From: an uncultured Chlamydiae bacterium
GTDB taxonomy: Bacteria; Chlamydiota; Chlamydiia; Chlamydiales; JAJFMB01
Direction: 5' to 3'
NCBI GenBank assembly: GCA_963697995.1
Contig: OY969110.1
Coordinates: 1,063,404 to 1,127,403, forward strand
Length of the DNA: 64,000 nucleotides
Position 1 is the stretch's first letter. The number at the start of each line of letters is the position of its first letter. The notes beneath the pieces were generated by a model, which did not search any database, was not told the origin of the DNA, and saw only the letters and a list, made by a program, of their open reading frames with translations. Position numbers and translations under genes: made by a program. Positions 1,798 to 23,413 of this stretch are shown here, piece by piece.

Positions 1798-2967
1798 ATG
1801 CATATACACGAATTTCAGACAAAAGAGATTTTATCAGACTTTGATATCCCTGTGCCTCCTTTTTTTGTCGCATCGACACTGGAAGAAGTAGAACAGATCA
1901 TTAAAGATAAGGGATTAAAGCAAGCTGTCGTAAAAGCTCAAGTGCACGCTGGTGGAAGAGGAAAGGCGGGGGGGGTAAAAATCGCTAAAAACCCGGAGGA
2001 GATTCTATTATTCTCTAAACAGCTTTTAAAGACCTATCTTGTGACAAAACAGACAGGAAAAGAGGGGCAGTTTATAGATAAAGTATTGATTACCCCTCTT
2101 GTTAAAATTAAAAAAGAATATTACGTGGCAGCTCTTATCGACAGAAAACTTAAGATGCCGCTTTTGATGGTATCTTCTCATGGGGGAGTTGACATTGAAG
2201 AGGTGGCTGCAAGTTCAAAAGAGGCGATAAAAAAAGTACCAATCTTGTTGAATGGGTCGATTAGGGGTTACAACATTGAAGCGGTGTTAAAATTTTTGGA
2301 TTGGAAAGAGGATTTAAAAGAGGTTGGAAAAAAGTTTCTTCTTTCTTTGGCAAAAGCCTTTATCACATTAGATGCTTCATTAATAGAGATCAATCCTTTG
2401 GTGTTGACTGAGGAGGGAGAGCTTTTGGTGTTGGATGCCAAAATGACAATTGATGATAATGCCTCCTTTAGGCAAAAAAAAATCTTCGAGTATTACGATG
2501 AATCGCAATTGTCCCCCCTTGAAGCTGATGCTAAAAGACATCATCTAGAGTATGTCGCTTTAGAGGGCACTATTGGGTGTATGGTCAATGGGGCAGGTCT
2601 TGCGATGGCCACGATGGACCTGATTAAATATTTTGGGGGCTCTCCTGCAAACTTTTTAGATGTCGGGGGATCAGCCCCAAAAGAGAGGGTTGCTGAAGCG
2701 TTTAAAATTTTGCTTTCAGACAAAAAAGTGAAAGTGATCTTTGTCAATATTTTTGGGGGAATCATGAACTGCAAAACGTTAGCAGAAGGGATTGTTGAGG
2801 CGGCAGATGAAGTTGGTTTAAAGATTCCTCTTGTCGTGAGAATGGAAGGGACAGATGTGGAGGGGGGAAGAGCTATTTTTGCAAAATCTAATCTTGAGAT
2901 AAAGAGTTTTTTGTCTTTAAGGGAAGCAGCCAAAGCATCTGTAATGCTCTCAGGAGTTAAGGCATGA
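1798..2967 (+). CDS. sucC: Succinyl-CoA synthetase beta subunit
   Basis: 389 aa. [12 protein letters not shown]..., an ATP-grasp region ([18 protein letters not shown]) and a C-terminal ligase-CoA region ([15 protein letters not shown]). Overlaps the sucD start by 4 nt. Confidence 0.95.
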
Positions 2968-3855
2968 GTATTTTAATTAATAAAAAGACGAAAGTGATCA
3001 CTCAAGGGATTACCGGAAAAGCGGGGCGGTTTCACACAGAGGAGTGTCTTAAGTATGGCTCTCGATTTGTTGGAGGGGTGACTCCTGGTAAGGGGGGAGA
3101 GACGATTTTTGGTCTCCCGATTTTTGATAGTGTCCTAGAGGCAAAAAAATACACCTCTTGTGATGCAACGATGATTTTTGTTCCGGCCCCATTTGCTATG
3201 GAGGCTATTTTGGAGGCAGAGGAGGCTAAAATTCCTCTTATCGTGTGTATTACCGAGGGAATTGCTGTTCGCGATATGTTAGAAGTCTCCTTTATCATGA
3301 GTAAAAGCGAGAGCCGCTTAATTGGCCCAAACTGTCCTGGAATTATTACGCCGGGAGAGTGTAAAATTGGGATTATGCCAGGGTATATTCACCAAAAGGG
3401 GAAAGTGGGGATTGTATCGCGCTCTGGAACACTGACGTATGAGGCTGTTTTTCAGACGACAGAGGCAAAACTTGGGCAATCGACTTGTGTGGGGATTGGA
3501 GGAGATCCGTTAAATGGGACGAGTTTTATCGATTGTCTAAAGCTTTTTGAAAATGACCCTCAAACTGAGGTGATTTTGATGATTGGGGAGATTGGGGGAG
3601 AGGCAGAAGAGGAGGCCGCTGAATACATTAAGCGACACATGAACAAAGCCTGTTGCCGCATTTATCGCAGGGGTAACAGCTCCTCCAAATAAGAGAATGG
3701 GTCATGCCGGAGCGATCATTTCAGATCGAGTGGGAGGAGCTCTTGAGAAGATTGAGGCTCTTGAAAAAGCGGGGGTTGTTGTAGCCAAAACTTCTGCCGA
3801 TATGGCAGAGGCTGTTTTAGAAGCATTAAAGAGAAGAGAGGGAAAGGATGATTGA
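2964..3855 (+). pseudogene. sucD: Succinyl-CoA synthetase alpha subunit, frameshifted near 3645-3655
   Basis: ORF 2964..3692 encodes [21 protein letters not shown]...[11 protein letters not shown]...GIGGDP and then degenerates ([16 protein letters not shown]). The +1 frame continues with the expected conserved C-terminus [50 protein letters not shown]..., ending at TGA 3853-3855. Confidence 0.85.
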
Positions 3856-4583: not shown

Positions 4584-5747
4584 ATGCGAAACGTGTTTTT
4601 ATGTCTTATTTTGTTATTTTCTTTTTTACAAGGTAAAGAGAAAACGATTTGCCTTAATATGATTGTTAAAAATGAAGCGCATGTGATTAAGAGATGTTTA
4701 GCTTCAGCTAAACCTTTAATCGATCACTGGGTCATTGTGGATACAGGGTCTACTGATGGCACTCAAGCCATTATTAAGGAGTTTATGAAAGGCATTCCTG
4801 GGGAGCTTTACGAGCGTCCTTGGGTAAATTTTGGGCACAACCGGAGTGAGGCTTTAGATTTGGCAAAAGGAAAGGGCGATTATGTTCTTTTTGTCGATGC
4901 CGATGAGGAGTTTGCCTTTGATCCTGGCTTTAAGTTTCGCAATTTATCGCAAGACAGCTACCTTATGGTGATCGATCATGGGGGAAGTCACTATTTTCGC
5001 AGGCAGTTGATCAACAACAAGTTAAATTGGTGCTGGAAGGGGGTTTTGCACGAGTATTTGGACTGTCCCTTAGCAAAAACGGAGGGTAAGATCGATGGGA
5101 TTTCGACGATTTACCGCTCAGAGGGAGCCAGGTCCTTAGATCCGAAAAAATATGAGAAGGATGCTGCTGTGCTTGAGAAAGCTCTTATAGATGAACCGGA
5201 CAATGTGAGGTATATGTTTTATTTAGCGCAAAGTTATAAAGATGCAGGAAATATGGAGAAGGGGATCGAATGGTACGAGAAGAGGGCAAAGATGGGGGGA
5301 TGGGACCAGGAGGTCTTTTGGTCGCTCTACCAAGTGGCGAGAATGAAAGACCGTCCTGGTGTACCTGATAACGAGATTATCGATGCTTATTTAAAGGCGT
5401 ACCATTACCGTCCAAGTCGAGTTGAGCCTTTGGCCCGTTTATCGAGCTTTTACCGCATTCGCAACCAGTACTTGTTAAGTTATTTGGTGGCAACCCATGC
5501 GATGCAAACGCCCCCATCGGATGATATTTTGTTTGTCGAGACTGATTTGTGTACTTATTGGCCTCCCTTTGAGGCTTCGATTTCAGCTTACTGGCTTGGC
5601 AAATACGACGAGTCGTTTAAGCTTTGCGAGAAGCTTGCAAACGATAAGGATCTTCCCGATTGTTTAAGAGGGTATGTTGAGGGAAACTTAAAATTTGCTA
5701 AGGAAAAGATGAATAGTGATCCTCTCTTTAAAGTGGCCATAAAATAG
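4584..5747 (+). CDS. GT2-family glycosyltransferase with a TPR-like C-terminal half and an N-terminal signal/anchor
   Basis: ICLNMIVKNEAHVIKRCLASA...VIVDTGSTDGT...VLFVDADEEF is a GT-A fold with a DxD-type motif. The C-terminus carries TPR-like helices (YMFYLAQSYKDAGNMEKGIEWYEKR). The N-terminus is MRNVFLCLILLFSFLQG. Confidence 0.7.
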   Translation: MRNVFLCLILLFSFLQGKEKTICLNMIVKNEAHVIKRCLASAKPLIDHWVIVDTGSTDGTQAIIKEFMKGIPGELYERPWVNFGHNRSEALDLAKGKGDYVLFVDADEEFAFDPGFKFRNLSQDSYLMVIDHGGSHYFRRQLINNKLNWCWKGVLHEYLDCPLAKTEGKIDGISTIYRSEGARSLDPKKYEKDAAVLEKALIDEPDNVRYMFYLAQSYKDAGNMEKGIEWYEKRAKMGGWDQEVFWSLYQVARMKDRPGVPDNEIIDAYLKAYHYRPSRVEPLARLSSFYRIRNQYLLSYLVATHAMQTPPSDDILFVETDLCTYWPPFEASISAYWLGKYDESFKLCEKLANDKDLPDCLRGYVEGNLKFAKEKMNSDPLFKVAIK

Positions 5748-6010
5748 ACATCTGTTTTGAGTTTTTTAACAAGAGATTGTGTTGAAGTGATGGAATCATT
5801 CTTTCAACTTGGCAAAGTTGCCAAGTAAATTGAAGGTTTTGCCGCAAAAAAAACATGATTGATAGGATAAACATGATATGAAGGATAACCTTTGTGTCGG
5901 GATGATGCTATTAATCCAACCTAAACGCTTCATGTACTTTAAGACTTGGGAGCTGTCGAACGAAAAGTGTATGTTTGCATGCCCCCCCTTTTTTGGGCAG
6001 AGCCCAAAAA

Positions 6011-6106
6011 CACTAAAGGAAAGGAAAAGTTTTTTAAAAAAGCAAAATCGAGAGGGGCTCAATAAAGCTTCGTTGCTTTTTTAAAAACTTTTCCTTTCCT
6101 TTAGTG
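6011..6106. repeat. Near-perfect 34/35-bp inverted repeat with a 27-nt loop, the core of a multi-hairpin intergenic element
   Basis: The left arm cactaaaggaaaggaaaagttttttaaaaaagcaa (6011-6045) is the reverse complement of 6073-6106 except for one extra T. It is flanked by hairpins at 5991-6009 and 6107-6123, and by a C7 run (5982-5988) and a G6 run (6124-6129). Confidence 0.8.
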
Positions 6107-6398
6107 TGGCGCGGTTTGCGCCAGGGGGGTAGTTCCTAAGCTTTAGGGACACCTTTGCTACTTCAATAGTGACAAGCACCCGAAAAGAGCTTGGGTAGAT
6201 GCGAAATAGGGTAAATTCTCTTTTCCTTTATCAAGCCTATCAAGTGTATCCGATTTATCATGTTTTTACTTCTTGAGGAGTAAAAAAACGTGCGCCCATT
6301 TGTGATATTTAGCAAAATTTTTGAAACTCAAATTGAAACCTTTGTAGATAGAGTACCCTTTCGAGAGAGGTCTATTTTATTCCTAATATGAGCTTAAG

Positions 6399-7940
6399 TT
6401 ATTGCGTTAAGGTGAGCGATTTTTTAACTTCGTCCACATCCACAAGGGCAATATACGCTTCTTTGTCTTCAACGCCGAGCGTTACAGCTATATGTTTTCC
6501 TTCGTGATCTAAACTCATCCCTGCGCAGTATTCGATGCCAATAGTTTTGATGTAAAATAAGGGGGAGGCTTTTGTGATTTCGAATTTTTTATTGAGGAAA
6601 ATAAAGCGATGAAGGTAGTAGCGTCTATCGGTGTAGGCCACTTCGTGTACAATAACTAGGTAGCCGTCATCGAAGGGAACAGGGCCGGCTGATCCTCTAA
6701 ATCGGGAAGTGTCTAAAAATGAGTTTGTTTCGATTACTTTTTTTGTGGTTCCCGTGATGGGATCCACTTTAAAGACAATTAAGGGATCGTATGAATAGAT
6801 CGCATGAATTTGTTGGTTTAGGACAAATGGAAGCCAGTTTTTTTCACACCGTTTTGGATCGGGTCCTTTAAGAGGAGTCATTTGCGTAATGCTTGCATCT
6901 TCTCCAATTTTACCAAGACCTATCTGAATCGTGTTGTTTGGATTGGCATCGACAAGCGAGCTTGTGAACCAATTCTCCCCATTGAACTTAAACAGGCGGC
7001 AATCCTCTTTCCCTTCGGCGTACCACCAGGGAAATTTGGGGTAGTTTGATTTATCGAGAATCTCTTCTTGCGAGAGGCGCTTAAATGATTTATCCATCGA
7101 AATAAGAAAATTGCGGGTGACGATTTTCTTGTTATTAGGATCGCGGGACCAGAAGTGTTTTGCATTTTTTTGCCCATAGTTGACGGTTCTACAAATCACA
7201 TCGTACCCATTCTCCGTCTTTTGGATCGAAGGGTTCATGGGATTGAAGTATTCAGTGTCAGTGATTTTAGGAAGCTGCACATCGACTGGGATAAGGGTTG
7301 CCTTAAGCTGCTTTGAATAGAAAATCGCGTTGTTGAGAGCCTGGTTTTTTGTGTACCAGGGAGCCTCCTTGTTGACAAGAAGGCGATTGAGCGCTTGATA
7401 CCCCTCCTCTTTGTAAGGAGTGTAAAAGCTTGCAATCGAGAGTTCCTCGTCGAGAAGGTAGCTGTAAACTTCTTTTGACATTAACGGGGTAAAAGTTTTA
7501 GGTTTTGGAAGAGCTTTTCCTTGTCTTGCATAAAAAGTGGCCATCTCATTTTGACCTTTATACCTAAAAAAACGTGCCAGCTCGTAGAGAGCTTCAGCTC
7601 TTTTGGGATTGAGTTGAAATGCTTTGGTAAACGCCTCTTCTGCGCGGTTAAGCTCCTTTTTCTCTTCATAACATTTTCCAAGGGTCAAATAGCTTCGCCA
7701 CACCTCTTCACTTAAATCTCCCCTTTCAACTCTCTTCTCAAGCCATTTCATCGAAGTATTGATGAGACCTAATTTTTTACTTGTTTCCCCCAAGTAAAAC
7801 ATCGTATGGGGATTGTTTGGATCCTTCTCAATCAGGTTTAAGAGTTTGACAAGATTTTTTTCCGTCTTGTCGGTATCTGCTAAGAGAAGTCCTGGTATTA
7901 CAAGTAAAAGAAGGATGCGGTACATGAAAAAAAGCCTCAT
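6399..7940 (-). CDS. Signal peptide plus TPR N-domain plus conserved ~300-aa C-domain (possibly a GH130/DUF377-like beta-propeller); paralog 1 of 3
   Basis: 513 aa with N-terminus MRLFFMYRILLLLVIPGLLLA. TPR-like helices are present (MFYLGETSKKLG...LGKCYEEKKELNRAEEAFTKAFQLNP). C-domain motifs are NPSI, RTVNY, EDCRLF, EKNWLPF, IYSYDP, GSAGPVPFDDGYLVIVHE, YLHRFIFL, SPLFY and GVEDK. Confidence 0.6.
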   Translation of the reverse strand: MRLFFMYRILLLLVIPGLLLADTDKTEKNLVKLLNLIEKDPNNPHTMFYLGETSKKLGLINTSMKWLEKRVERGDLSEEVWRSYLTLGKCYEEKKELNRAEEAFTKAFQLNPKRAEALYELARFFRYKGQNEMATFYARQGKALPKPKTFTPLMSKEVYSYLLDEELSIASFYTPYKEEGYQALNRLLVNKEAPWYTKNQALNNAIFYSKQLKATLIPVDVQLPKITDTEYFNPMNPSIQKTENGYDVICRTVNYGQKNAKHFWSRDPNNKKIVTRNFLISMDKSFKRLSQEEILDKSNYPKFPWWYAEGKEDCRLFKFNGENWFTSSLVDANPNNTIQIGLGKIGEDASITQMTPLKGPDPKRCEKNWLPFVLNQQIHAIYSYDPLIVFKVDPITGTTKKVIETNSFLDTSRFRGSAGPVPFDDGYLVIVHEVAYTDRRYYLHRFIFLNKKFEITKASPLFYIKTIGIEYCAGMSLDHEGKHIAVTLGVEDKEAYIALVDVDEVKKSLTLTQ

Positions 7941-9448
7941 TTGATTGAAAGATTATTTATTACAGACTCAACAGGAATAAGAGCTATAAAAGACGTTTTG
8001 TCTTCAACTCCTAAGGTGAGGACAACGTTTTTTTCCTCGTGGTCTAAAGTCATTCCTGAACAGTACTCAACCCCAATTGTTTTAAAGTAAAAGAGGGGAG
8101 AAGCTTTTGTGATGCGGAACTCTTGGTCTAAAAAGAGAAATCTGTGGTAGTAGAAAAATTTTCCTGCAAGAGCTCTTTCGTGCACGATGACAAGATAGCC
8201 CTCTTCAAAAGGGATGGGTCCAGAAGATCCTTGAAATCTGGTTCCATCAAAGGGACACTTGTGTTCTACCACTTTTTCACATTTTCCTGTGTCAAGATCG
8301 GGTTCTAAGATAATGGTTGGATCGTATGAGTAAATCATTTGGATCCGATCGTTGTGAACAAAGGGTAACCAGTTTTTTTCCGCTCTTTTGGGATTGGGGC
8401 TATTTAAAGGAATCACTTGTCCCGTCTTAAGTTTTCCTAAGGCTACTTGAGGCGTATGAGTGGGATTAGCTTCTGTAACAGCACAACTAAAAAAGTTCTC
8501 CCCATGATAAGAGAAAAGGCGGCAATCCTCATTGCCTTCCATTTCCCAAGGGAATTTGGTGTAGGTGGAGTGATCAAAGATCTCTTCTTCTGACGTGATG
8601 AGAAACTCTTTATCCGTTGTGACAAAAAGGTTGCGACTTATAAAGATGTATCGTTTGGGATCGCGGGTTAGTAAGCTTTGATTGTTCTCTTCATTGATTT
8701 TTTCATAATTGACTAAGCGGCAAATCAGTTCATACCCTGATTCTGTTCTCTGGATCGAAGGGTTAATAGGATAATACGATTCTTTTTCATCGATTTTTGG
8801 ACAGGTGACATTTAAGGGAATATAGGTGGCATCGATAGGTTTGATATAATAGCGAAGATTGCTAAAAGCTTGATTTTTGATGTGGAGGGGAGCCTCTTTG
8901 TTTAAAAGTAGTCTGTTGATCGCATGAAGCCCCTCCTCTTTTTGAGGGGAGTAGAAGGCGGCAATCGAGAGCTCCTCATCTAAGAGGTAGCTAGACACTT
9001 CCCTAGAAATGATCGATGACTCCTCCTCTGGTAGGGAGATTTTTTTTCCTTCAAGGGCATAATAAGTGCAAAGTTCATTTTGCTCTTTTTTCCTGGCAAG
9101 TTTTGCCAAATGATAGAATGGCTCAGCAAATTTGGGAGCGACTTCTCTTGCTTTAAGATAAAACCCATTGGCCTTATCGAAATCTTTTTTCTCCTCATAG
9201 GCTTTTCCAAGGGCAAGATAGGAGAGCAAAAGTTCCTTTGGAGTGCCTCCTAGGTCAATTTTTTTTTGGATCCACTTTAACGAAAGGTCTGTTAGACCCA
9301 AATTTTTGTACGTTTCAGCAATCTCTTCCATCAGATGAGCATTTTTGGGGTCGCAATCTTGCTTTTTTAGGAGCGCTAGAAGATCGTCCTCCGTTGTAGC
9401 TAGAAGAAGAGATGAGAAGGTTGAAAGGAGAAGAAAAGTTCGTAGCAT
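7937..9448 (-). CDS. Signal peptide plus TPR plus the same conserved C-domain; paralog 2 of 3
   Basis: 503 aa with the same architecture and motifs as 6399..7940 (EKNWLPF, GSSGPIPFEEGYLVIVHE, YYHRFLFL, SPLFYF, GVEDK). A 4-nt overlap with the downstream paralog suggests co-translation. Confidence 0.6.
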   Translation of the reverse strand: MLRTFLLLSTFSSLLLATTEDDLLALLKKQDCDPKNAHLMEEIAETYKNLGLTDLSLKWIQKKIDLGGTPKELLLSYLALGKAYEEKKDFDKANGFYLKAREVAPKFAEPFYHLAKLARKKEQNELCTYYALEGKKISLPEEESSIISREVSSYLLDEELSIAAFYSPQKEEGLHAINRLLLNKEAPLHIKNQAFSNLRYYIKPIDATYIPLNVTCPKIDEKESYYPINPSIQRTESGYELICRLVNYEKINEENNQSLLTRDPKRYIFISRNLFVTTDKEFLITSEEEIFDHSTYTKFPWEMEGNEDCRLFSYHGENFFSCAVTEANPTHTPQVALGKLKTGQVIPLNSPNPKRAEKNWLPFVHNDRIQMIYSYDPTIILEPDLDTGKCEKVVEHKCPFDGTRFQGSSGPIPFEEGYLVIVHERALAGKFFYYHRFLFLDQEFRITKASPLFYFKTIGVEYCSGMTLDHEEKNVVLTLGVEDKTSFIALIPVESVINNLSIK

Positions 9449-9457
9449 GTAGTGACC

Positions 9458-11436
9458 TCATTTTATGGAAAGATGTTTTTCAATCGATTCTTTTGGGAAA
9501 ATAGCAAGATACGCCTCTTTATCCTCTTTTCCAAACGAAACAATGATCTCATTTTCGTTGTGGCTCCAAGTCATTCCACAAGCAAATTCAATTCCTGGAG
9601 CTGTAAAGTAGAAAAGAGGGGAGATTTTGGTGATTTGAAACTCTTTGTTTAGAAAGAGGAATCGGTGGAGGTAGTTTCTTCTGTCGGTGATGTTGAGCTC
9701 GTGTATCAAGACCAAGTATCCATCGTCAAAAGGGATTGGGCCGGCAGAGCCACTAAAATTTGAGCAATCAAACTTTGAGTCGGTTTGGTAGGCAATTGTA
9801 TGGGAGCCCGTGTTGGGATCGAGTTTATAAATAGTGAGCGGCTCGTATTTATAAATGGCAAAGATTTCGTTTTGAAAAGCGAAGGGTAACCAGTTTTTTT
9901 CTTTTCTCAAAGGATTGGGGCTGACAAGAGGTGTCAGTTTATCGCAACAGGTGTGATCTTTTGAGATTTTCCCAAGAGCCATTTGCGTGGTATTAAGAAA
10001 ATTGCCGTCACTAATTGAGCAAGTAAACCAATCATCTCCTTTAAAATCAAAGAGATGATAATCCTCTTGTCCAATGACGGGATAGTATGGAAACCTTTCA
10101 TAAACTGCGTTGTCGACGATCTCTCTTTTTATAAGAGGAGTGAATTCTTTGTCAGTTGAGACTAGAATGTTTTTGTTGATAAAGATGCGTCCTCCTATTG
10201 GCCAATAATCCATCCCATTTTTGTGGTCATAGTTGACAAGGCGGTAATTGATGTCGTACCCCGTTTCTGTTTTTTTGATAGAGGGGTTTGTTGCAAAAAA
10301 GGGGTACTCTGGATTGAGGGGAATGGGAACAATTTTAGCTTGAAACTCTTCCATCGGCAAAAAGAGGCGGCTTGGAGTGAGCTTTTTCGAGGAGGGTTCA
10401 GAAGGGGGCGTTTTAATGAGTGTCATCATTGTGGTGATAAAATGATCTATAGTAAATACTTTTGCTTCTTCACTTTCAAGATACGCTCTAATATGAGTGA
10501 GGTACTCTTCATACTCCTCTTTATCCATGGTCTTTAAGAAGGTATAAAGATCTTCTTGGCTCTCAAAATCTTCTCTTGCAATGAAGCAATTTTTAGGAAT
10601 ATAGGAAGTGATATTTGGAGCGCCGTAATAGATAGGAACGACTCCTGCTTGAAAACAGGCGAAGATTTTTTCTGTGATATATCCTGGAATCCCTTTACAG
10701 TTTTCGTAGGCAAAAGCAAACCGGTAATTTTTTAAGACTTCGATTTTCTCTTTGTGGTCCTCCTGGGATCATTCCCTTGTAGATACTTAAGCCAAGAGGC
10801 GCCCATCCACTTGAGCCGAAAAGTTCAAAATCTTGCTTGTGGTGTGTTTCAAAAAAATCAGCCAGAATTTTTCTTTCACGCGTAGAGCGCATTTGGAGCT
10901 CGGGAGTATCCAAAACTTGCGACCATTGCGCAAAGTTTTTTGTTTTCAAAAGGGACGATGTCCTTCGTCATAGGGTAGAGGACAGGGTAGTGAATTTTGA
11001 AGTATTTATTATTGTCGACTAAGGTGTCGAGGACTGTGTAAATTTTTCCGAAATATTTGTGGTATTCAACATCGTAATCTTGCGGCATTGTCGCTGGGGG
11101 CTCCCAAAGAAATAAGATGAGTTTTTCTTTCGGATATTGGATCAAAAACTGTTCTGGAACTGATCTATCAAATGAGATCAAATAGTCGACTTGCGAGTGA
11201 TGCGGAGGGGGAGAATAGGGGTTACCTACTTGGAGATTAAACTCCTCATTTTTTGCAACCCGATAGAATTGCCGGGTCGCATCCTGATTGTAGTATATGG
11301 GAGGGCCTTCCCCTTCAAAAAGATGGTCTCCCCAAAAAAGAGGATAAAAGAGTGTGGTTTTTGTGGTCTCCACGGCGTTAAGCGTTACGAATAAGAAAAA
11401 AAACAAAATGGGCATCATCACCACCACTCTCCTCAA
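9458..11436 (-). pseudogene. GT10 (alpha-1,3-fucosyltransferase-like) domain fused to the conserved C-domain (paralog 3 of 3); the GT10 part is interrupted by two frameshifts
   Basis: Four pieces in three frames read as one protein. (1) 10876..11436 gives MRRVVVMMPILFFFLFVTLNA...ENKKLCAMVASF. (2) 10695..10949 gives RSTRERKILADFFETHHKQDFELFGSSGW. (3) The frame of ORF 9458..10528 is open upstream to about 10770 and encodes the GT10 signature EKIEVLKNYRFAFAYENCKGIPGYITEKIFACFQAGVVPIYYGAPNI (10726-10622). (4) It continues without a stop into the C-domain (NPSI, EKNWLPF, GSAGPIPFDDGYLVLIHE). Confidence 0.7.
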
Positions 11437-11515
11437 TTAAAGTGAGCCATTTTAAAGCTCTTAAATTTTTTTAGCTATAAAAATTTAAATAGGAAAAAAA
11501 AGAAGCGTTTGGGTA

Positions 11516-13508
11516 TTGTTGAAAACAATCTTTTTTAAGGAGTCTCATTTGAAACTTTTTCATCTAGTGTTGAGTCTTTTTTTCTTTTCCTATCTTGAAG
11601 CCGTGCCCTACAAGGTTGCTGTCATCTGGACAGGTCTTGGAGAGTTTGAGCTGGCACAAAGAATTGAAAAGTCTTGTCACAATTTAGGGTGGCAATGTCT
11701 TGTGGTCTATGGGGGAGATCCAGCGAATGATTTTCATAAGACGTTTGCCGATCTTGAAAATCCTCAAGACCCATCTTCCTTGATAGAGCATTTTCAACCC
11801 GATTTTTGTCTTCATTTAAAAGAAAATATGAAAATTTATCCTTATGCTCCGAATTACTTAGCTGTTACAGGTTGTTCAATTGAGTTTTTTGATGGGCATT
11901 TTGCTGTAAATGAAGAGTTATTTAAATATGATGGGTTTTTATATTCGAGTCCAAGAGTCAATTCTTTAAAGAGTTTTTTTGAGTCTTCCGGACGAAAATT
12001 TAATGGGTTACTTTGGTATGTTTCTTGCCCTAAGACTGACTATCAACCTATTGGGCATCAGACCCTTTTTTATTGTGGATTTCAGTGGGATCCAAAAAGA
12101 ACAAGTCCTGCTTTTTTAACTTTGTACACTCTTTTGAGTGGGAAAGGATATTTTGAGGTTTGGGGTCCTGAGAGTTCCTGGTCTTATTTGCCTCGATCGT
12201 ATCGAGGTTTTATTCCTTTTGGGGGAGATTTTCTTCAGAACGCGATTAGAGAGGCTGGAATAACTCTTGTATTACACTCACAACCCCATATTTATTTGGC
12301 AGCTCCCTCTTCTAGGATTTTTGAGGCCGCTGCTGCTTGTAGCGTTGCCATTTCAGACAGACACCCTTTTATTATGGAACATTTTGGCGATTCTGTTCTT
12401 TATGTTGATGATTATTTAAGGGGTGAAGAGATGTTTTCTCAAGTCGATGCTCATATGCGTTGGATTTTTGCTAATCCTAAGGAAGCTGAAGATCTTGCAA
12501 AAAGAGCTCATAATTTATTTGTAACGAAATTTTCTCTCGAGAAGCAACTTGAAAATTTAGGCAAAATGCACGAGAAATGTTTAGAGGATCGCTTTAAAAA
12601 AATCGTGATTGGGGGCGTTTGCAAAAATGTGGAATCCTGTTTGAAGAAAACGATTGAGAACATCGAAGTCTTTAGCGAGTCGTTTCTTCGATTATAGAGT
12701 CGTTATTTATGAAAATAACTCATCAGATGCTACGCCTCTTCTTTTAGCTGAGTGGGCAAGGCGTGATCCAAAAGTGAAAGTGATTTCTGAAATAATAGAT
12801 GATGTGGCCTCTTCTAGAACAGAGAAAATTTCAAACGCGAGAAATAAGCTTTTGTCTTGTATAAAAGAGTCACAATATAATGAGTTTGAAACCGTTGTTA
12901 TTGCAGATCTTGATTTTAAAACCGATTGGCCAATAGATGCAATTTGTGAAACAATTAACACTCCAGGGGATTGGGATGGAGTTTTTGCAAATGGGATACT
13001 CTCTTCTGGAGTCTATTACGATCGGTATGCTTTCCGGGATAAAGAGCACCCTTTTGGTCCTGAATTACTGGCAAATTCTTGGTGGACAGAAGTCACTGAT
13101 TGGGAAAGAGGGATTGTTTTTAAAGCTGATCAACCTTGGCATCCTGTTTATTCAGCTTTTGGAGGACTTGGGATTTATAAGAGACAAAGCCTTTTAAACG
13201 CTTTATATTCGGGTCTTGCGACCTGGGATTTACAAAAGTATATGTCTCAAATCATCCAAAAAACCTCTAAGGAAAATAAAGATTTAAAGTATTATGCTGA
13301 AATAAATGGCATCAATCTTGATTTAGATTTAAAAGATGTACCTATAGTTTTTCGATATAATTCTATCGGTACAGCGGAAAATTCTCCATGGGTCACCTGT
13401 TGTGAACATTTGCCATTTCATGCTTTGATGAGTTTGCAAGGGCATGGAAATTTTTACATTAATCCGAAAATGGTGATGAAATATTCCGATGAAGAAATAT
13501 TCCGATAA
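11516..13508 (+). pseudogene. Two-module glycosyltransferase (CgeB/GT1-like N-module plus GT-A, possibly CAP59/CMT1-like, C-module) with a 1-nt frameshift near 12680-12690
   Basis: N-module: RIFEAAAACSVAISDRHPFIMEHFGDSVLYVDD...ANPKEAEDLAKRAHN. ORF1 ends IENIEVFSESFLRL*. ORF2 continues SRFFDYRVVIYENNSSDATPLL.... This is collinear with the paralog 14248..15217 (IDNIEKLGAKFSDYRALIYENNSTDGT), so one reading frame is expected. The start codon is uncertain (TTG at 11516). Confidence 0.65.
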
Positions 13509-13526
13509 TAGAGAGGAAAGTATTGC

Positions 13527-14237
13527 ATGTTTAGAATAAGTTATTTAATCAGTTTTTTGTTGATGGCATCTAGTTGTTTTTCTCAATACTACAGTCAGAT
13601 TGGGCAAGATGAGACCGTCAATTCGAGGTATTTCAAAAATAAAAGGGATGGGGTTTTTGTCGATATTGGGGCTCACAATGGAGTGACCTTTAGCAACAGC
13701 TGTTTTTTTGAAAGGGCACTTGGATGGAAAGGTATTGCAGTCGAACCAATTTCTGAGGTTTATGAAGAATTAAAGAAAAACCGCACTTGTGAGTGTGTTA
13801 GGGGCTGCATCACAGATTTTACGGGACCTGGGGATTTTGTCAGGATTAAGTCTCCCTTTGTGAACACCGAGATGCTTTCTGGTTTACTCCAAAAATACGA
13901 TCCTCGTCATATGGAGAGAGTCAAAAGGGAGATTGAGACTTATGGGGGTTCTTATGAAATCATTAAAGTTGATTGCTATCTCATAAATGATCTTTTAAAT
14001 AAAATGGGTTTTAATCATATAGATCTATTGAGTTTAGATACCGAAGGGGGAGAGTTTGAAATTATTTCCTCGATCGATTTTAGCAAGTTTGAGATTGATG
14101 TGATAACCCTAGAGGATAACTATCATGATTCCCGTTTTATTCCTTTTTTAGAATCTAAAGGATATCGATGTATTGAAAGAAACCATTTTGATCTTCTTTT
14201 TGTTCGCGAGGCTTTTTTGAAAACGGTTCAAGGATAA
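13527..14237 (+). CDS. FkbM-family SAM-dependent methyltransferase with an N-terminal signal/anchor
   Basis: VFVDIGAHNGVTFSNSCFFERALGWKGIAVEP and IDLLSLDTEGGEFEIISSIDF match the FkbM (Methyltransf_21) pattern. The N-terminus is MFRISYLISFLLMASSCFS. Confidence 0.75.
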   Translation: MFRISYLISFLLMASSCFSQYYSQIGQDETVNSRYFKNKRDGVFVDIGAHNGVTFSNSCFFERALGWKGIAVEPISEVYEELKKNRTCECVRGCITDFTGPGDFVRIKSPFVNTEMLSGLLQKYDPRHMERVKREIETYGGSYEIIKVDCYLINDLLNKMGFNHIDLLSLDTEGGEFEIISSIDFSKFEIDVITLEDNYHDSRFIPFLESKGYRCIERNHFDLLFVREAFLKTVQG

Positions 14238-14247
14238 GGGAGGATCG

Positions 14248-15217
14248 ATGAAGTTTGCTCAAATTTTTCTCTTTTGTGTTTTTTTTGAGACGGCTTTGAT
14301 GGGAGAGAGTGTCAGTCAGAAAAAAATACTGATCTGTGGGGTTTGTAAAGATACCGCGTTTGCAGCGGTAAATTCGATCGACAATATTGAAAAATTGGGT
14401 GCTAAATTTTCCGATTATCGGGCTTTAATTTATGAAAATAATTCAACAGATGGAACAGATTTTATTTACAAGGAGTGGGCTCAACAAAATAATCGTGTCG
14501 TTTTTCAATCAGAGGTGATTTTGGAGGCCGATCTTGCGCTTTCGCGCACTGAAAGAATAGCCAATAGTCGCAATCACCTCCTTTCATGGATTAAAGAGCC
14601 TCAATACGATGAGTTTCAATACGTGGTGATGGTAGATTCTTGACTTTATCACTCCTTGGCCAATAGAGGAGATTTGCAAAACGATTGAGACTAAAGGTCA
14701 TTGGGATGTGGTCGGAGCTAATGGTCTTCACGCGGAAGGGTATTATTATGATCGTTATGCTTATAGGGGAACAGATTACCCTTTTGGTCCTGAATTGATT
14801 GGAATTACATTTTGGGACGAGGTGAGTTCTGGCCCTAAGATTCATTTTAAAGAAGAGAAGTCTTGGGTTTCAGTTTATTCTGCCTTTGGCGGATTGGCTA
14901 TTTATAAGAGAAAAAGCCTCTTAAAAGCGAGTTATTCGGGTTTAGTCACAAGTGACTTAAAAAAGTACTACAGCTATATATTCAAACTAGTTTCAATCGA
15001 TAATCCTCAATTTAAGAAATATTGTGAATTAAATGGGTTTCGTAGAGGTTTTGATCTAGGTAAATATGCAGTTATTTTTAGACAAAATAGCCAGTGGTAT
15101 TCTGCTGATAACTATTTTAAAATCACTTGTTGCGAGCATGTCCCATTTCATGCTTCGATGGCTCTCCAGGGACATGGGAAATTTTATATCAATCCAAAAT
15201 TGATTATGAAGTATTAA
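14248..15217 (+). pseudogene. GT-A (possibly CAP59/CMT1-like) glycosyltransferase module, paralog of 12591..13508, with a 1-nt insertion near 14638
   Basis: ORF1 ends ...YVVMVDS*. Removing one T in gatTcttgac restores VVMVDLDFITPWPIEEICKTIETKGHWDVVGANGLHAEGYYYDRYAYRG, which is collinear with VVIADLDFKTDWPIDAICETINTPGDWDGVFANG...YYDRYAFRD in the paralog. Confidence 0.7.
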
Positions 15218-15219
15218 AA

Positions 15220-15248
15220 GGGAAGGTAAGGGGTGGCCTTACCTTCCC
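15220..15248. terminator. Hairpin between convergent genes (12-bp perfect stem), probably a bidirectional terminator
   Basis: gggaaggtaagg-ggtgg-ccttaccttccc. It lies directly after the TAA of 14248..15217, 10 nt downstream of the 15258..16958 stop, and has an A/T run on the minus-strand side. Confidence 0.6.
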
Positions 15249-15257
15249 GATAAATAA

Positions 15258-16958
15258 TTATTCTGCTATGCGTCTAGAATCGGCATACGTTAAAATCTTT
15301 TCGACAAAGGGATCATTTTTACTTTGTTCCGAATGACGGCTTATAAAAACGGCTCCAGGGCCAAATGAAACGCCACCTGATCCCAAATGAGTTGTACAAC
15401 GAGCGTTACAAACTTTGCGCTCATTGCAATAGAGGGAGCCAATAGTGGGAAACCCATCGTATGCCACAGCTCTTCTTCCTACCCAGCGGCGTGCAATACC
15501 CTTATTTTCTAAAGATGACAACTCTTCAGAAGAAATTGTTTTGCCCTTCGTGTGGTATCCTTGAGCTAATGAAACAAATTCAGGAAGAACATCGTTGACC
15601 ATGTTCAATTGAACGAGATTCCTATTTTTAGCAAACTCTTCCTCTTTATTTGGCTCCTTGTCGCCATAAAACGCTTTTGTGCCGGCCACTCCAATAAAAA
15701 TAGAGTTTTCTTTAAATCGAGCTTGCCAAGCCAAAACAATACCCTCATTATGCACTTCCATGCAGTGTGAAAAGTTTTTATACATTTCAATCTGATCCTT
15801 TGAAAGTGGGATAGTGATTAAAAGGGAAGCCCCTGCAAAACCTGCATAAGCCGGTTCATTAAATCCCAAATGATGGAGAGTTCCAATAGATTCCCCAGGG
15901 CAAAAAACATAGCGAGATTCGATTTTGGATTGAGTTTCAATTTGCTCTGTTCCATTGCTAAACTTTAAACCGATGATGCGCAAATCGTCCGAATTGGGAT
16001 CAAACATTATTGCTGTGACTTCTTTACCAAACTGAAGCTCAAAACAATCTCGGATTTGATTGTTAGAGTCTTTGTATTGTCCCATCGTTTTTTTTAGGTA
16101 AGCGTAGAATTTAGGCAGGAAAGAGCCTGTGTCGATGCACCCACCTGGTCTCCATAAAGCGACAGAGTCGTTTTTCCAAATGCGAACTTTATTGTTATCT
16201 AAAACGGAGTGATGATCGCAAAAATCGGCGAGGAATGGATCGATTGCGATCACTTCATCAGGTGATAAAATAGCGCAGTTTTTATACCCTAATTTTTCAT
16301 AGTCAGCCTGCATATTGAGAGCGCGATTCTTAGCATTTGGGATTCCGTAGATAAGGTCAATTCGATAGCCATCATGGAGAGTTTTTTTAGAATCGTTTCT
16401 TGGTTCTCGGCAAGGATTAAAATTAGAGGCTTCTAAAATACCCTTAAGTTCAGCATCCCCTTCATCATACATCTGTTGCCACAAATCCATACTTTTTTTG
16501 CCGAGCATCAATAATGAGAGCGTGCGGTCGTCATGATTTTTATCGGAACCGTAAATCGCTACAGCTTCTTTAAAATGGATGGCAGCTTCCGAATCATTAA
16601 CTCCTGCCACATCATCTACACGTATTCCACCTGGCTGACTAAAAAGGATGGAGAGTTTTTCCACTAATTCAGATCCACGAGGCACAACACTCAATATCTC
16701 ATCAATTGTAAGGCTCGGAACAATGTTATATGAAGTGTTAGTTGAGGATTTTCCACCGTTTGATTGAGAAAGGCTGTCTCCTTTCTCGTAAACTGTTATG
16801 CAAATTTTTTCACCATTTTTTTCAGCCTCTTTATGCGCATAATACGATTCGAGGGCTCCAACAATTCCTCCACCAATGATGTGGGTTTTATAGTTAACTG
16901 CAAAAGTTTCACTAAAGCTTAAGACACATGAAAGTATAAGAAAGAATATTTTTTTCAT
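15258..16958 (-). CDS. FAD-dependent oxidoreductase (DAO-like) with an N-terminal signal peptide
   Basis: 566 aa. MKKIFFLILSCVLSFSETFA is followed by a dinucleotide-binding motif (HIIGGGIVGALESYYA). The C-terminus has a DAO-like HLGSGGVSFGPG. Confidence 0.65.
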   Translation of the reverse strand: MKKIFFLILSCVLSFSETFAVNYKTHIIGGGIVGALESYYAHKEAEKNGEKICITVYEKGDSLSQSNGGKSSTNTSYNIVPSLTIDEILSVVPRGSELVEKLSILFSQPGGIRVDDVAGVNDSEAAIHFKEAVAIYGSDKNHDDRTLSLLMLGKKSMDLWQQMYDEGDAELKGILEASNFNPCREPRNDSKKTLHDGYRIDLIYGIPNAKNRALNMQADYEKLGYKNCAILSPDEVIAIDPFLADFCDHHSVLDNNKVRIWKNDSVALWRPGGCIDTGSFLPKFYAYLKKTMGQYKDSNNQIRDCFELQFGKEVTAIMFDPNSDDLRIIGLKFSNGTEQIETQSKIESRYVFCPGESIGTLHHLGFNEPAYAGFAGASLLITIPLSKDQIEMYKNFSHCMEVHNEGIVLAWQARFKENSIFIGVAGTKAFYGDKEPNKEEEFAKNRNLVQLNMVNDVLPEFVSLAQGYHTKGKTISSEELSSLENKGIARRWVGRRAVAYDGFPTIGSLYCNERKVCNARCTTHLGSGGVSFGPGAVFISRHSEQSKNDPFVEKILTYADSRRIAE

Positions 16959-17319
16959 TTGTTATCCTTAAAGGAGTTTTTTTTTATTTGAGAGATGACG
17001 CCATTTGCAGGAAATAATTTCAAAAACTGTTCGGATCTTTTAGTGTCGATCTTCGCTATGGGGACTTATAATCACAAGAAGTAACTTTCGTTCTCCGGGC
17101 TTTGATCGCAGCCAAATTTCTTTTTATTTTGTGAATTTATTTCTGCAAATGGTATTGCTAAAATCTCTCCATCGAAGCGATTGTGGCTTAAGGGGGTTTT
17201 TATTATCAATAGACTTCTTTCAAAACTCTAATCGCTTGCTAATTTCACCCTTTTCGTTAGCATGAAAGCTAAATATTTTTGACAATCTGAATAAAAATCA
17301 CTGATTTTATCGAACAAGG

Positions 17320-17487
17320 CTAGTACAGTTGAAAAAAGTTTTTACTGAAAATTTTAATTTGAAAGCTCCCGCGGTTCGTGTATCGAAAATGGGGCTAGTA
17401 TGGAGTTAATACAACCCCATTTTCATCTGCGACCCCGGGGCTTTGAAATCGAAATTTAAGCTAAAAACTTTTGTTCAACTGTACTAG
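17320..17487. repeat. 168-bp nested imperfect palindrome immediately downstream of tRNA-Ser
   Basis: Arms 17320-17374 and 17433-17487 pair; the outer 26 nt match 25/26 (ctagtacagttgaaAaaaagttttta). An inner hairpin pairs gaaaatgggg (17385-17394) with ccccattttc (17415-17424). Confidence 0.7.
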
Positions 17488-17524
17488 TATTGAAATAAGA
17501 AAATGATTTGATAAAAGAGGGAAT

Positions 17525-17609
17525 CGGAAGAGGAGGGATTCGAACCCCCGTTACCTTACGGTAAATCTGTTTTCGAAACAGACGCAATCGGCCACTCTGC
17601 CACTCTTCC
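17525..17609 (-). tRNA. tRNA-Ser (anticodon CGA), class II with a long variable arm; CCA not encoded
   Basis: Minus-strand sequence GGAAGAGTGGCAGAGTGGCCGATTGCGTCTGTTTCGAAAACAGATTTACCGTAAGGTAACGGGGGTTCGAATCCCTCCTCTTCCG. It has a 7-bp acceptor stem, anticodon loop TTCGAAA, variable stem TACC/GGTA and a T-loop TTCGAAT. Confidence 0.9.
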
Positions 17610-17678
17610 TTATTAGAAAAAAACTATTAGTGTATAAATAGTTTCAGGAAGAATTCTCTCAAAAACAGGCTTAAAAAG

Positions 17679-19001
17679 TCAAAGGTTTTTAAGCGCTTCT
17701 ACTATTACGGAAAACCCTTTTTTTAAACGGCTTATGGAAAAATGTTCGTTTGGTGCATGGATCTGATCCCCTGGAAGACCTAACCCGAGCAGGATCACTT
17801 CGGCACCGCTAATTTCGGCAAGTTCTGAGACTATTGGAATTGATCCTCCTTGCAGAAGAGATTCGCACGGTTTTTGAAATACTTTTTCAAATGCACGTTT
17901 AAATGCAAGAGCCCCTCGGGAGTTTGGATTGGCTCGAATCGCTTTTCCACACCCCTCGTGGATTTTGATGTCGATCCCAAGCCCTGGGGGAGTTAGTTGA
18001 ATGAGAAACTTCTTTAAACTCTCCCCAATTTTTTTAGGATCCTGCTTTTCAACCAACCGACAAGACAGTTTTGCAAACGCCTTGGCAGGGATCACTGTCT
18101 TAAATCCCTCACCGCTATAGCCGCCTGAAAGGCCATTGATCTCAAGCGTAGGTCTTGCTCCCACGCGCTCTCCGGGAGAAAAAGCCTTCTCACCCCCATT
18201 GGCCACAGCTCCAAAAAGAGCCATATACTCGTTTTCATCAAAGTCTAAGGCCAAAAGTTTTCTCTCCTCCTCTTTAAGGGGGATCACATCGTCGTAGAAA
18301 TGGGGAACCATAACGCGCCCCTCTTTATCCCGAAGATGACTTAAAATTTCGACTAAGGCGTGTAGGGGATTGTAGGCAATTCCGCCGTGTTGCCCCGAGT
18401 GTAAGTCGGTGTGAGATCCCGTAATGACGACGTCGCATGTTAATATTCCCCGAACCCCTAAAGTGATCGCAGGTCTCTCTTCGTTTTTTAGGCTTAAGTC
18501 GACAATCGCCAAAGTGTCCGCTTGAAGAGCCTCTTTTTTTTGGGGGAGAAGTTTTGATAACTCATGACTGGCACTCTCCTCTTCCCCTTCGATGATCAGT
18601 TTGATGTTGACGTTTTTTGGGTTATTTTTTAAGAATTCTTTGACCGCTTTGATAGTATAGAGGCATTGCCCTTTATTGTCCTGGGCTCCCCTTGCAAAGA
18701 CGAGATCATTCTCGATCGTTGGGGTAAAAGGGGGGCTTTTCCAAAGTTCTAATGGATCGACTGGTTGAACATCGTAGTGGTTGTAGATGAGAATAGTCGG
18801 TTTATCGGGACCTGCTTTTAAATTTTTGGCAAAAACGACTGGTGGACCCTCCGTTTGCCAAATCTCTACGTCAAGAGATGATTCTTCAAGTTTTTCCTTT
18901 AACCAAAGCGCGGCCTTTTCCATTTCAGATTGCAATGATTTATCGGCACTGATTGTTTTGAAGGTAAGGAAGGTCAGGTAATCGTCTAAGAGTTCATTCA
19001 T
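17679..19001 (-). CDS. M20-family metallopeptidase/dipeptidase (ArgE/DapE/CPG2-like)
   Basis: 440 aa. PTILIYNHYDVQPVDPLELWKSPPF, GAQDNKGQ, IEGEEE and HAPNEH are typical M20 metal-binding and catalytic patterns. Confidence 0.75.
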   Translation of the reverse strand: MNELLDDYLTFLTFKTISADKSLQSEMEKAALWLKEKLEESSLDVEIWQTEGPPVVFAKNLKAGPDKPTILIYNHYDVQPVDPLELWKSPPFTPTIENDLVFARGAQDNKGQCLYTIKAVKEFLKNNPKNVNIKLIIEGEEESASHELSKLLPQKKEALQADTLAIVDLSLKNEERPAITLGVRGILTCDVVITGSHTDLHSGQHGGIAYNPLHALVEILSHLRDKEGRVMVPHFYDDVIPLKEEERKLLALDFDENEYMALFGAVANGGEKAFSPGERVGARPTLEINGLSGGYSGEGFKTVIPAKAFAKLSCRLVEKQDPKKIGESLKKFLIQLTPPGLGIDIKIHEGCGKAIRANPNSRGALAFKRAFEKVFQKPCESLLQGGSIPIVSELAEISGAEVILLGLGLPGDQIHAPNEHFSISRLKKGFSVIVEALKNL

Positions 19002-19093
19002 ATTTAGTCTAAATTTTCCTTTTTAAAATTGAAGGGAAACATGTTATTCCTCTTGTTATTTTAAAGGTTTTTTGATATAACATTAAAACTCAG

Positions 19094-20086: not shown

Positions 20087-20208
20087 AATCTCTACTTGAT
20101 TTAAGCTCAAATGAGCAATTTCTTTTAGAAAAATTTTTAATAAAAGGTGATTTTTTTAAAAATCTTTATGAATGATTGCAACCTTTAAAATCTCTTCTAG
20201 GCGGTCTT

Positions 20209-21504: not shown

Positions 21505-21505
21505 A

Positions 21506-22195: not shown

Positions 22196-22198
22196 AAA

Positions 22199-23203: not shown

Positions 23204-23221
23204 CCTTTTGGCTATTTCCTT
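23194..23221. terminator. Perfect 12-bp hairpin spanning the stop codon of 22199..23203, between convergent reading frames
   Basis: aaggaaatagcc-tttt-ggctatttcctt. Confidence 0.55.
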
Positions 23222-23233
23222 AAAAAGGGCTTA

Positions 23234-23413
23234 CTAAAAGTTGCTGCTAGCATGAACACTCATTCTAAGCTCCTCGGCAGCTCTTGTGACTCCTTTCCTA
23301 ACCGATTCCCAATACCAGTCATCCCCGCACATGATCCCATCTTCTCTTAAGTGCTTTGACCAAGCGATAATATTTTTGTATACATTTCCTTCCGCGTGAG
23401 AAGCGTCGATATA
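23234..23413 (-). pseudogene. 3' fragment (59 codons) of a class-I methyltransferase-like gene whose 5' part is missing at the MITE boundary
   Basis: Minus-strand translation gives IYIDASHAEGNVYKNIIAWSKHLREDGIMCGDDWYWESVRKGVTRAAEELRMSVHASSNF*. It has the same D..H...DDW.W pattern as 23801..24550 and 24749..25495. The reading frame runs straight into the element terminus at 23416 with no start codon. Confidence 0.65.

Follow-up and report, generated by a model that had tools for sequence, protein, structure and literature searches.

A tandem array of three GH130-like beta-propeller genes in an uncultured chlamydia belongs to a widespread, uncharacterised family with a possible role in glycosyl transfer

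The stretch of DNA analysed here (64,000 nt, the window; positions 1,063,404 to 1,127,403 of contig OY969110.1, assembly GCA_963697995.1, from an uncultured Chlamydiae bacterium) carries on its minus strand a tandem array of three genes which share a C-terminal domain of ~300 aa. Copy 1 (6399..7940, 513 aa, P0001) and copy 2 (7937..9448, 503 aa, P0005) each consist of a signal-like N-terminus, a TPR region and the shared domain, referred to as propeller on account of its predicted fold. The propeller of copy 1 is located at 6402..7301 (residues 214-513) and is the reference for all residue numbers given below; the TPR/linker region of the same protein is located at 7359..7877 (residues 22-194). 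The propeller of copy 2 spans 7940..8833. Copy 3 appears as an ATG-started open reading frame (ORF) of 356 aa (9458..10528, P0453), in which the propeller (9461..10345) is preceded in frame by the C-terminal tail of a GT10 (fucosyltransferase-like) part. This part extends over 10346..11436 and exhibits a signal-like N-terminus and a broken reading frame. Signal-like N-termini were judged by reading the N-terminal sequences, without a predictor.

An earlier note on this DNA, made from the letters alone, had described the three C-termini as collinear. This is borne out by alignment, which shows no rearrangement, and the motifs listed at the time are all found (NPSI, R.VNY, ED(C/Y)(R/H)LF, EKNWLPF, GS(A/S)GP, HE, Y.HRF, G(I/V)E(Y/F) and G.EDK). 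Compared to copy 1, whole-protein identity amounts to 51% for copy 2 and 42% for copy 3, while the propellers alone are 53%, 48% and 44% identical among the three copies. In a search of 5.8 billion sequences the copy 1 domain matches copy 2 with E = 3e-98, therefore chance similarity is excluded. The tight gene boundaries were verified as a 4-nt overlap (7937..7940) and a 9-nt gap (9449..9457). TPR repeats had been proposed for both copy 1 and copy 2. In copy 1 they exceed the Pfam cut-offs (TPR_17 40.4 bits, cut-off 24.4; TPR_8 32.1 bits, cut-off 25.7), whereas the matches in copy 2 stay below threshold. A scan for promoters and terminators was uninformative, promoter-like sites being rarer than in shuffled sequence.

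A collapsed or expanded repeat was considered as an artefactual source of the array and is ruled out, the copies being just 44-53% identical and the array being reproduced on independent contigs. Copy 1 itself sits on a contig of 2,051,574 bp. A Logan contig from run ERR11563597 shows 100% identity across 6066..9682 of the window, and the same gene order is found in a related organism on the JGI contig L079 with 63-77% protein identity.

The fold of the copy 1 domain was predicted using AlphaFold2 with an alignment of 71 sequences. The model is all-beta with a predicted local distance difference test (pLDDT) of 96.6 and a predicted template modelling score (pTM) of 0.93. Using Foldseek against the PDB, ranks 1-20 are occupied by GH130 chains throughout (probability 1.00, E 1e-9 to 2e-7, template modelling score (TM) 0.60-0.67, 11-16% identity). 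Nineteen of these chains are characterised mannoside phosphorylases or a synthase, to which adds TM1225, deposited as a predicted glycosidase; the proteins represented are Lin0857, Uhgb_MS, UhgbMP, TM1225, RaMP2, BfMGP and Teth514_1789. GH43 chains follow below GH130 (E 9e-7 to 1e-4, TM 0.47-0.56), and the GT108 chains 6Q4Z, 6Q4X, 6Q4W, 6Q50 and 2B4W are matched with E 1e-6 to 4e-5 and TM 0.52-0.57.

By sequence the similarity is far less apparent. PF04041 (cut-off 26 bits) is matched by none of the three window copies at E <= 0.1 and by the copy 1 domain not even at E <= 10, and neither Pfam nor NCBIfam yields a match for the propeller domain in these copies. Weak, sub-threshold PF04041 matches occur in 17 of the 71 homologues with a best E of 3.8e-4. 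Sequence searches of the PDB returned TPR proteins only when a profile of the three copies was used, and only chance lysozyme matches, without a GH130 chain, when the profile was limited to the domain.

The gap is bridged by a second family, here named family B. It comprises ~340-aa genes with a signal-like N-terminus which adjoin or lie near a gene coding for a GT2-TPR-propeller protein. Overall 45 such ORFs were found in ~40 of 77 related genome loci (L003-L077, e.g. L009:675-1703 and L055:8967-10412), none being located within the 64-kb window. Family B aligns to the window domain with an hhalign probability of 99.7% (E = 3e-25). Some of its members exceed the PF04041 cut-off (38.1 and 34.5 bits vs 26), and its profile matches GH130 PDB chains with E = 1e-4. 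Moreover the EDAR motif of family B pairs with EDPR/EDCR of the PDB GH130 chains, in low-scoring HMMER segments, and a His directly follows the conserved Pro at the switch region. Since family B connects the domain to PF04041 and the fold matches as well, the domain is a true but remote GH130 homologue which falls outside GH130 by the Pfam sequence threshold. Its assignment to the five-bladed beta-propellers of the GH130/GT108 superfamily is near certain. The earlier suggestion of a five-bladed propeller of GH130/DUF377 or GH43-like type is hence supported by AlphaFold2, Foldseek and the bridging family. The broad class is already recognised automatically: several homologues (P0023, P0040, P0046, P0051 and P0052) carry the JGI label 'predicted GH43/DUF377 family glycosyl hydrolase', corresponding to COG2152. 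Most other homologues are unnamed or 'hypothetical protein', and the window's own proteins are likewise unnamed.

The window propellers belong to a large divergent clade which we refer to as family A. When 1.84 billion cluster representatives were searched exhaustively with a profile, 6,694 proteins matched at E <= 1e-3, of which 1,498 reach E <= 1e-30. In species-representative genomes the close relatives stem nearly all from metagenome-assembled genomes (MAGs) of Chlamydiota (Parachlamydiales, Rhabdochlamydiaceae, Waddliaceae), other labels being a few Verrucomicrobia, one Chloroflexia and one Saccharimonadales. The commonest architecture, present at most Chlamydiota loci, consists of a hydrophobic N-terminus, GT2, TPR and propeller in ~670-770 aa. 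This includes the closest genome relative (L002, 63% identity), where GT2-TPR-propeller is found as an ORF of 667 aa. Stand-alone propeller genes exist as well (P0013, P0022, P0050). In the window, a stand-alone GT2 and TPR protein of 387 aa with a signal-like N-terminus is encoded on the plus strand at 4584..5747 (Glycos_transf_2, E = 8e-15). It aligns with the first ~390 aa of GT2-TPR-propeller ORFs of ~700 aa in other genomes, and its residues 186-358 are homologous to residues 22-194 of copy 1 (BLASTP, E = 7e-17). Because the TPR region of copy 1 thereby corresponds to the C-terminal half of a GT2-TPR protein, copies 1 and 2 are, judged from their sequences, GT2-less derivatives of the GT2-TPR-propeller form.

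Family A is also found in giant viruses, a possibility which the earlier note had raised and which BFVD structure matches and IMG/VR contigs bear out. The seven best Foldseek matches in BFVD (TM 0.86-0.93, 26-35% identity) are six uncharacterised proteins from Pithovirus-labelled metagenomic bins and one protein of an 'uncultured Caudovirales phage'. Besides these, the fold is present, as a weaker match, in a Solivirus protein of 1279 aa which bears the name 'alpha(1,3)-fucosyltransferase' (TM 0.81, 23% identity). Relatives are encoded on 20 IMG/VR contigs, many of them giant-virus MAGs. The giant-virus contigs L083-L099 fall into two classes of G+C content, 31-36% and 56%. Architectures observed on giant-virus contigs are GT2+TPR+propeller, HtrL_YibB+propeller+GT2+TPR, HtrL_YibB+GT2+propeller and FkbM methyltransferase+propeller. 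Those giant-virus ORFs that were read through (L084, L085, L087, L088) begin without a hydrophobic N-terminal segment. Wherever a partner domain of the propeller could be identified it is biosynthetic (GT2, GT10, FkbM, HtrL), none serving degradation or uptake. The domain shuffling which had been described as unusual for the array is therefore right in substance and not peculiar to it, as GT2-TPR, GT10, FkbM and HtrL-like partners occur family-wide.

For a comparison of active sites the sequence of Uhgb_MS was rebuilt from a human-gut metagenome contig (L082); its numbering matches every residue named in PMC12814180. On this contig and on L081 (1625-2677) the Uhgb_MS-like GH130 gene is called as two pieces of 284-290 aa and 58 aa, because the frame contains a stop codon and the sequence deviates slightly, at one place, from that in the PDB. 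Five anchors were used. N23..R38 of family A corresponds to N32..R47 of Uhgb_MS at an equal spacing of 15 residues. E99-D100-C-R is identical to E136-D137-C-R, a pairing also obtained by MAFFT. K154..F159..P173 aligns without gaps to K184..F189..P203, which places position 172 of family A at R202 of Uhgb_MS. H219 and D279 correspond by motif to the His of YHG and the Asp of GASD, respectively. An hhalign comparison of families A and B with the single Uhgb_MS sequence covers the C-terminal 120 residues only (probability 69%).

Conservation was determined across 284 family A domains. N155, W156, G203 and E257 are present in 100%, D100 and H219 in 99%, K154 and R232 in 98% and D279 in 96%, followed by R38 (92%), E99 (90%), E220 (89%), R202 (88%) and R227 (87%). 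Position 172 is variable (D 55%, S 11%, E 9%, N 9%) and Arg is never among its top residues. Copy 1 shows the full consensus including R38, E99-D100, K154-N155-W156, R202, H219, R227, R232, E257 and D279. Copy 2 departs from it at two conserved basic positions (Q202, F227), and in copy 3 consensus Arg residues are replaced by S202, N200 and H102. Loop L2, a blade-3 loop which keeps nucleotides out in pure phosphorylases, comprises just two residues in the copy 1 model, between the DSSP strands 164-171 and 174-179.

The catalytic residue of GH130 is an invariant Asp located where blade 2 begins (D104 in UhgbMP, D142 in BT3780; PMC12814180, PMC4599007), and D100 occupies the corresponding position in 99% of family A. 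Specificity for beta-1,2 linkages is marked by a Glu before the catalytic Asp and by an Arg in blade 1 (R47 in Uhgb_MS; PMC12814180), a Lys also being counted as marker (PMC4599007). The donor phosphates are bound in Uhgb_MS by K184, R202 and R242, whereby an arginine of the R202 type is present in every GH130 phosphorylase (PMC12814180). Hydrolases of the family exhibit Glu227 and Glu268 (BT3780) instead of basic residues, and secreted GH130 enzymes are hydrolases whereas phosphorylases are cytoplasmic (PMC4599007). According to a published decision tree, a short L2 combined with fewer than four phosphate contacts indicates a transferase whose phosphorylase activity is low or absent (PMC12814180). 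At position 172 the phosphorylase Arg at the base of L2 is lacking family-wide. R202 and R227 are candidate phosphate ligands judging from the alignments, and candidates only because the equivalences in blade 4 differ between methods.

The third gene of the array is distinguished by its GT10 part. The copy had been described as GT10 followed by the propeller, yet 9458..11436 is not a single ORF, since the GT10 part is divided over three frames. Frame 0 (10876..11436) terminates at ...NALYA and a stop codon, a middle piece of ~40 codons (~10757..10877) lies in the next frame, and the third frame runs from ~10756 downward, unbroken via the motifs YRFAFAYEN and GYITEK, into the propeller. Of the GT10 domain, just the final ~140 aa are thus in the propeller frame. 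The two breaks could be located because an intact stand-alone GT10 of 349 aa (L040) is collinear with all three pieces (tblastn). Each is a single inserted base, a T at ~10878 and a C at ~10756-10757; the two are 120 nt apart and neither lies within a long homopolymer. After correction by hand the translation of 660 aa matches PF00852 (59.5 bits, E = 4e-16, cut-off 23.9 bits), while the uncorrected fragments yield no Pfam match. The proposed GT10 N-terminus of the third copy hence matches PF00852 solely in the corrected translation, the frame as given being broken twice.

Further interrupted genes are located nearby. sucD (succinyl-CoA ligase alpha, 2964..3692 with a continuation to ~3845) shows a frameshift at ~3648 with the conserved C-terminus in the other frame. 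On the plus strand, a GT1-like ORF (PF13524, 11516..12697) finishes with the first GT-A strand (KIVIGGVCKNVESCL...) and is overlapped by an ORF (12654..13508) beginning mid-domain (DYRVVIYENNSSD) with weak CAP59/GT2 matches. The two are probably one two-domain gene (GT1-like and GT2-like) split by an extra C at ~12686. In total four single-base indels lie within 13 kb of a 2.05-Mb single-contig assembly.

Because sucD and the gene at ~12686 carry single-base frameshifts too, the breaks of gene 3 are probably assembly errors. The fusion of GT10 and propeller looks real, since L079 shows an uninterrupted frame which extends from the edge of the contig across the GT10 tail (EEYLSCIKAFLLSDEAKKF...TMMTLM) into the propeller. 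A different explanation is that gene 3 is a decaying pseudogene with genuine frameshifts and no GT10-propeller fusion at all. Two uncompensated +1 insertions, 120 nt apart and outside long homopolymers, would fit this, as would the fact that copy 3 has the most substitutions at conserved sites. Moreover, among 120 listed GT10 homologues a propeller is present in none but the window's own ORF. Two metagenome scans revealed no further GT10-propeller junction, and exact-sequence look-ups of the gene 3 products (180 aa and 356 aa) found nothing. The clustering of single-base frameshifts in this region, the GT10 tail in the propeller frame of L079 and the strong constraint on the copy 3 propeller speak against decay, and we regard the pseudogene as possible but rather unlikely.

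This constraint is seen in the comparison of the window genes with their L079 counterparts, which gives pN of 0.14-0.22 at saturated pS of 0.72-0.81, with copy 3 at pN 0.17 and pS 0.81. All three genes, including the copy 3 propeller, are under purifying selection. Of the alignment and dN/dS check that had been proposed for the copies, the alignment was obtained, while the synonymous sites between the paralogues are saturated such that the test cannot discriminate. The counterpart of copy 2 in L079 (1086-1685) keeps signal and TPR and then continues directly with the final residues (...YYIKPIENTLSIK and stop), the whole propeller being gone by an in-frame deletion. As this counterpart is devoid of the propeller, the array is evolutionarily labile.

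Based on fold, homology, residue conservation and architectures, all of which are observed, we infer donor type, chemistry and product of the domain as follows. It may represent an inverting glycosyl-transfer module similar to GT108 and Uhgb_MS, which acts on a beta-linked glycan alongside GT2, GT10 or methyltransferase modules that are either fused to it or encoded nearby; we consider the case for this reading evenly balanced. Transfer would take place in the central funnel by inverting single displacement. The catalytic acid would be D100, which belongs to the EDCR motif where blade 2 begins and would act via a substrate-assisted relay of the GH130 type; R38, E99 and K154 would form an acceptor (+1) subsite of the beta-1,2 type, and K154, R202, R227 and H219 might grip the phosphate of a sugar-phosphate or nucleotide-sugar donor. 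The propeller would thus be the second catalytic module, together with a fused or nearby GT2, GT10 or methyltransferase making a beta-linked glycan, with the TPR repeats as linker or scaffold. In evolutionary terms, the tandem of one GT10-propeller gene and two TPR-propeller genes devoid of GT2 would descend from an ancestral GT2-TPR-propeller gene. As copies 2 and 3 have each lost one or two of the conserved basic residues, their donor or activity has probably changed.

The transfer reading rests on the catalytic Asp together with the basic residues, on the missing phosphorylase Arg together with a minimal L2, and on constant biosynthetic partners in two unrelated host groups. Low non-synonymous change (pN 0.14-0.17) at saturated synonymous change (pS 0.73-0.81) is a further point in its favour. 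With no phosphorylase Arg and an L2 of just two residues, the domain is most likely a transferase of the GT108 or Uhgb_MS type and not a phosphorylase. Several points weigh against transfer. Within blade 4, the family A residues paired with R242 and R268 of Uhgb_MS vary depending on whether hhalign, MAFFT or motif matching is used. An acidic residue occupies position 172 in each window copy and in 64% of family A, which recalls Glu227 of BT3780. The invariant E257 is without counterpart in the characterised GH130 or GT108 enzymes. The chlamydial proteins exhibit signal-peptide-like N-termini, whereas secreted GH130 enzymes are hydrolases (PMC4599007), and the donor supply outside the cytoplasm is unexplained.

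The main rival to transfer is accordingly that the domain is exported and hydrolyses glycosides with inversion, as do the GH130_3 beta-1,2-mannosidases BT3780 and BACOVA_03624; it would then remodel or trim an extracytoplasmic glycan. Besides the apparent export (PMC4599007) and the replacement of the phosphorylase Arg by Asp or Glu in the window copies, the conserved Lys as beta-1,2 determinant is compatible with such an enzyme, and E220 (89%) or E257 (100%) could activate water. The hydrolase signature is however seemingly just half present in the alignments. While position 172 is acidic, the region of BT3780 Glu268 holds either Arg (R202, 88%) or an invariant Gly and no acidic residue. Moreover the strand-2 His H219 (99%) is phosphorylase-like, the hydrolase-like chains 3R67 and 4ONZ having Asn instead, the giant-virus ORFs begin without a hydrophobic segment, and the identified partner domains are all biosynthetic. 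Taken together, we judge a hydrolase unlikely, though a serious contender.

A non-catalytic propeller which binds a glycan or protein partner and merely positions the attached transferase would agree with the loss of conserved basic residues in copies 2 and 3 and with the L079 counterpart of copy 2, whose TPR part is still an open frame without the propeller. Against this, polar and charged residues of the predicted pocket are 96-100% conserved including the GH130 catalytic-Asp motif, a pattern typical of enzymes, and stand-alone propeller genes exist, which makes a purely structural role improbable. A canonical GH130-type phosphorylase using inorganic phosphate is very doubtful in spite of GH130 phosphorylases being the best structural matches and of the conserved K154, R202, R227 and H219, as the Arg of all GH130 phosphorylases (R202 of Uhgb_MS; PMC12814180) is missing family-wide, the chlamydial members look exported while phosphorylases are cytoplasmic (PMC4599007), and the window copies fail PF04041.

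Extending the transfer reading, family A could be a new glycosyltransferase family of the GH130 fold and the bacterial and viral counterpart of GT108, with the TPR-joined GT2 forming a two-active-site beta-glycan synthase, possibly for a beta-1,2-mannoside, exported in chlamydiae, and with the cassette having moved between chlamydiae and giant viruses that share amoebal hosts. As a whole this picture is tentative, and that all its parts apply jointly is rather doubtful.

The array is part of a larger glycan island. Between 4.5 and 25.5 kb (4584..25495) nearly every transferase or methyltransferase gene starts with a Sec-signal-like segment. Apart from the GT2-TPR gene, the three propeller genes and the GT1-like gene with its CAP59/GT2-like part, this applies to FkbM (13527..14237), a GT34-like gene (20176..21504, PF05637, E = 1e-29), a class I methyltransferase (21458..22195) and an unassigned ORF at 22199..23203. 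Two tandem paralogues of ~250 aa on the plus strand (23789..24550 and 24749..25495) have signal-like N-termini as well and no Pfam match; they represent a second local duplication. Several of the island families are typical of eukaryotic Golgi enzymes. Exported GT-A, GT10 and S-adenosylmethionine-dependent enzymes would each require a donor supply outside the cytoplasm.

Further downstream, the plus strand encodes a RhoGAP-domain protein (31297..32250) and tandem TLC ATP/ADP translocases (34389..36005, E = 1e-191; 36262..37830, E = 1e-177). Such translocases and RhoGAP domains are hallmarks of an obligate intracellular, eukaryote-associated bacterium, and their presence fits an intracellular chlamydia. 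An Rfam match to SNORD36 (39589..39671, plus strand) within an ORF of 1479 aa (37892..42331) barely exceeds the gathering threshold (31 vs 30 bits, E = 0.59) and is almost certainly spurious, the host being bacterial.

GH130/GT108 is the current test case for one fold that switches between hydrolase, phosphorylase and nucleotide-sugar transferase chemistry. Family A has thousands of members which keep the catalytic Asp and a subsite of the beta-1,2 type, drop the phosphorylase Arg and are usually fused to a transferase; it is therefore suited for testing the published rules for the activity switch. The presence of the GT2-TPR-propeller cassette in both amoeba-associated chlamydiae and giant viruses suggests that machinery for building glycans was exchanged within a host niche common to both. 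If the chlamydial set is truly exported, together with GT10, GT34-like, CAP59-like and methyltransferase proteins, glycan synthesis would take place in the periplasm, the inclusion lumen or a host compartment. The apparent export signals across the island thus raise the question where environmental chlamydiae build glycans. In practical terms, a domain model for family A would annotate several thousand sequences. Though widespread, and foreshadowed in part by automatic labels and a recent preprint, the family is uncharacterised.

Among known systems, the GH130 enzymes of beta-1,2 type are the closest, and Uhgb_MS, Lin0857 (GH130_4), Teth514_1788/1789 (GH130_6) and BT3780 (GH130_3) were compared. 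Family A shares with them the five-bladed propeller, for which GH130 gives the best PDB matches, an E-D-C-R motif identical to residues 136-139 of Uhgb_MS, the conserved beta-1,2 markers R38, E99 and K154, the His which follows strand 2 in blade 4, and a C-terminal Gly-x-x-Asp. In contrast to GH130, identity amounts to only 11-16% and PF04041 is not matched by the window copies. Family A is without Arg at the phosphate or H/R-switch position, its L2 loop has two residues, and it has the extra invariant E257 and an H231-R232 pair. Furthermore its propeller mostly sits at the C-terminus or in the interior of a multidomain protein of 500-1100 aa, whereas characterised GH130 enzymes are single-domain. 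COG2152 (GH43/DUF377) is an automatic label, and GH43 structures match family A worse than GH130.

Unannotated five-bladed GH130-like propellers have been described in amoeba-infecting giant viruses, e.g. VSC_11007 (bioRxiv 10.64898/2026.08.04.742344). The preprint reports a hydrolase-like fold and docking, and describes neither the family in chlamydiae nor its fusions to GT domains nor the absent Arg (bioRxiv 10.64898/2026.08.04.742344); VSC_11007 is likened to family A by its description only. As regards GT91, the fungal Bmt/Wry beta-1,2-mannosyltransferases (PF12141), 3 of the 71 homologues match non-significantly near EKNWLPF (best E = 0.02), and both groups combine a signal-anchor with a luminal or exported domain. 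The fold of GT91 is unsolved (PMC8476585), and the possible connection is a lead only.

GT108 comprises Leishmania MTP1-4, GDP-mannose-dependent beta-1,2-mannosyltransferases/phosphorylases. Structurally it is farther from family A than GH130, its enzymes are single-domain, cytosolic and eukaryotic, and the switch residue of family A is neither His nor Arg. On the other hand GT108 is matched in fold by the copy 1 model, if less well than GH130 (Foldseek E = 1e-6, TM 0.52-0.57), the strict transferases of GT108 are likewise without the switch Arg, and GT108 is the precedent for this propeller acting as a nucleotide-sugar transferase.

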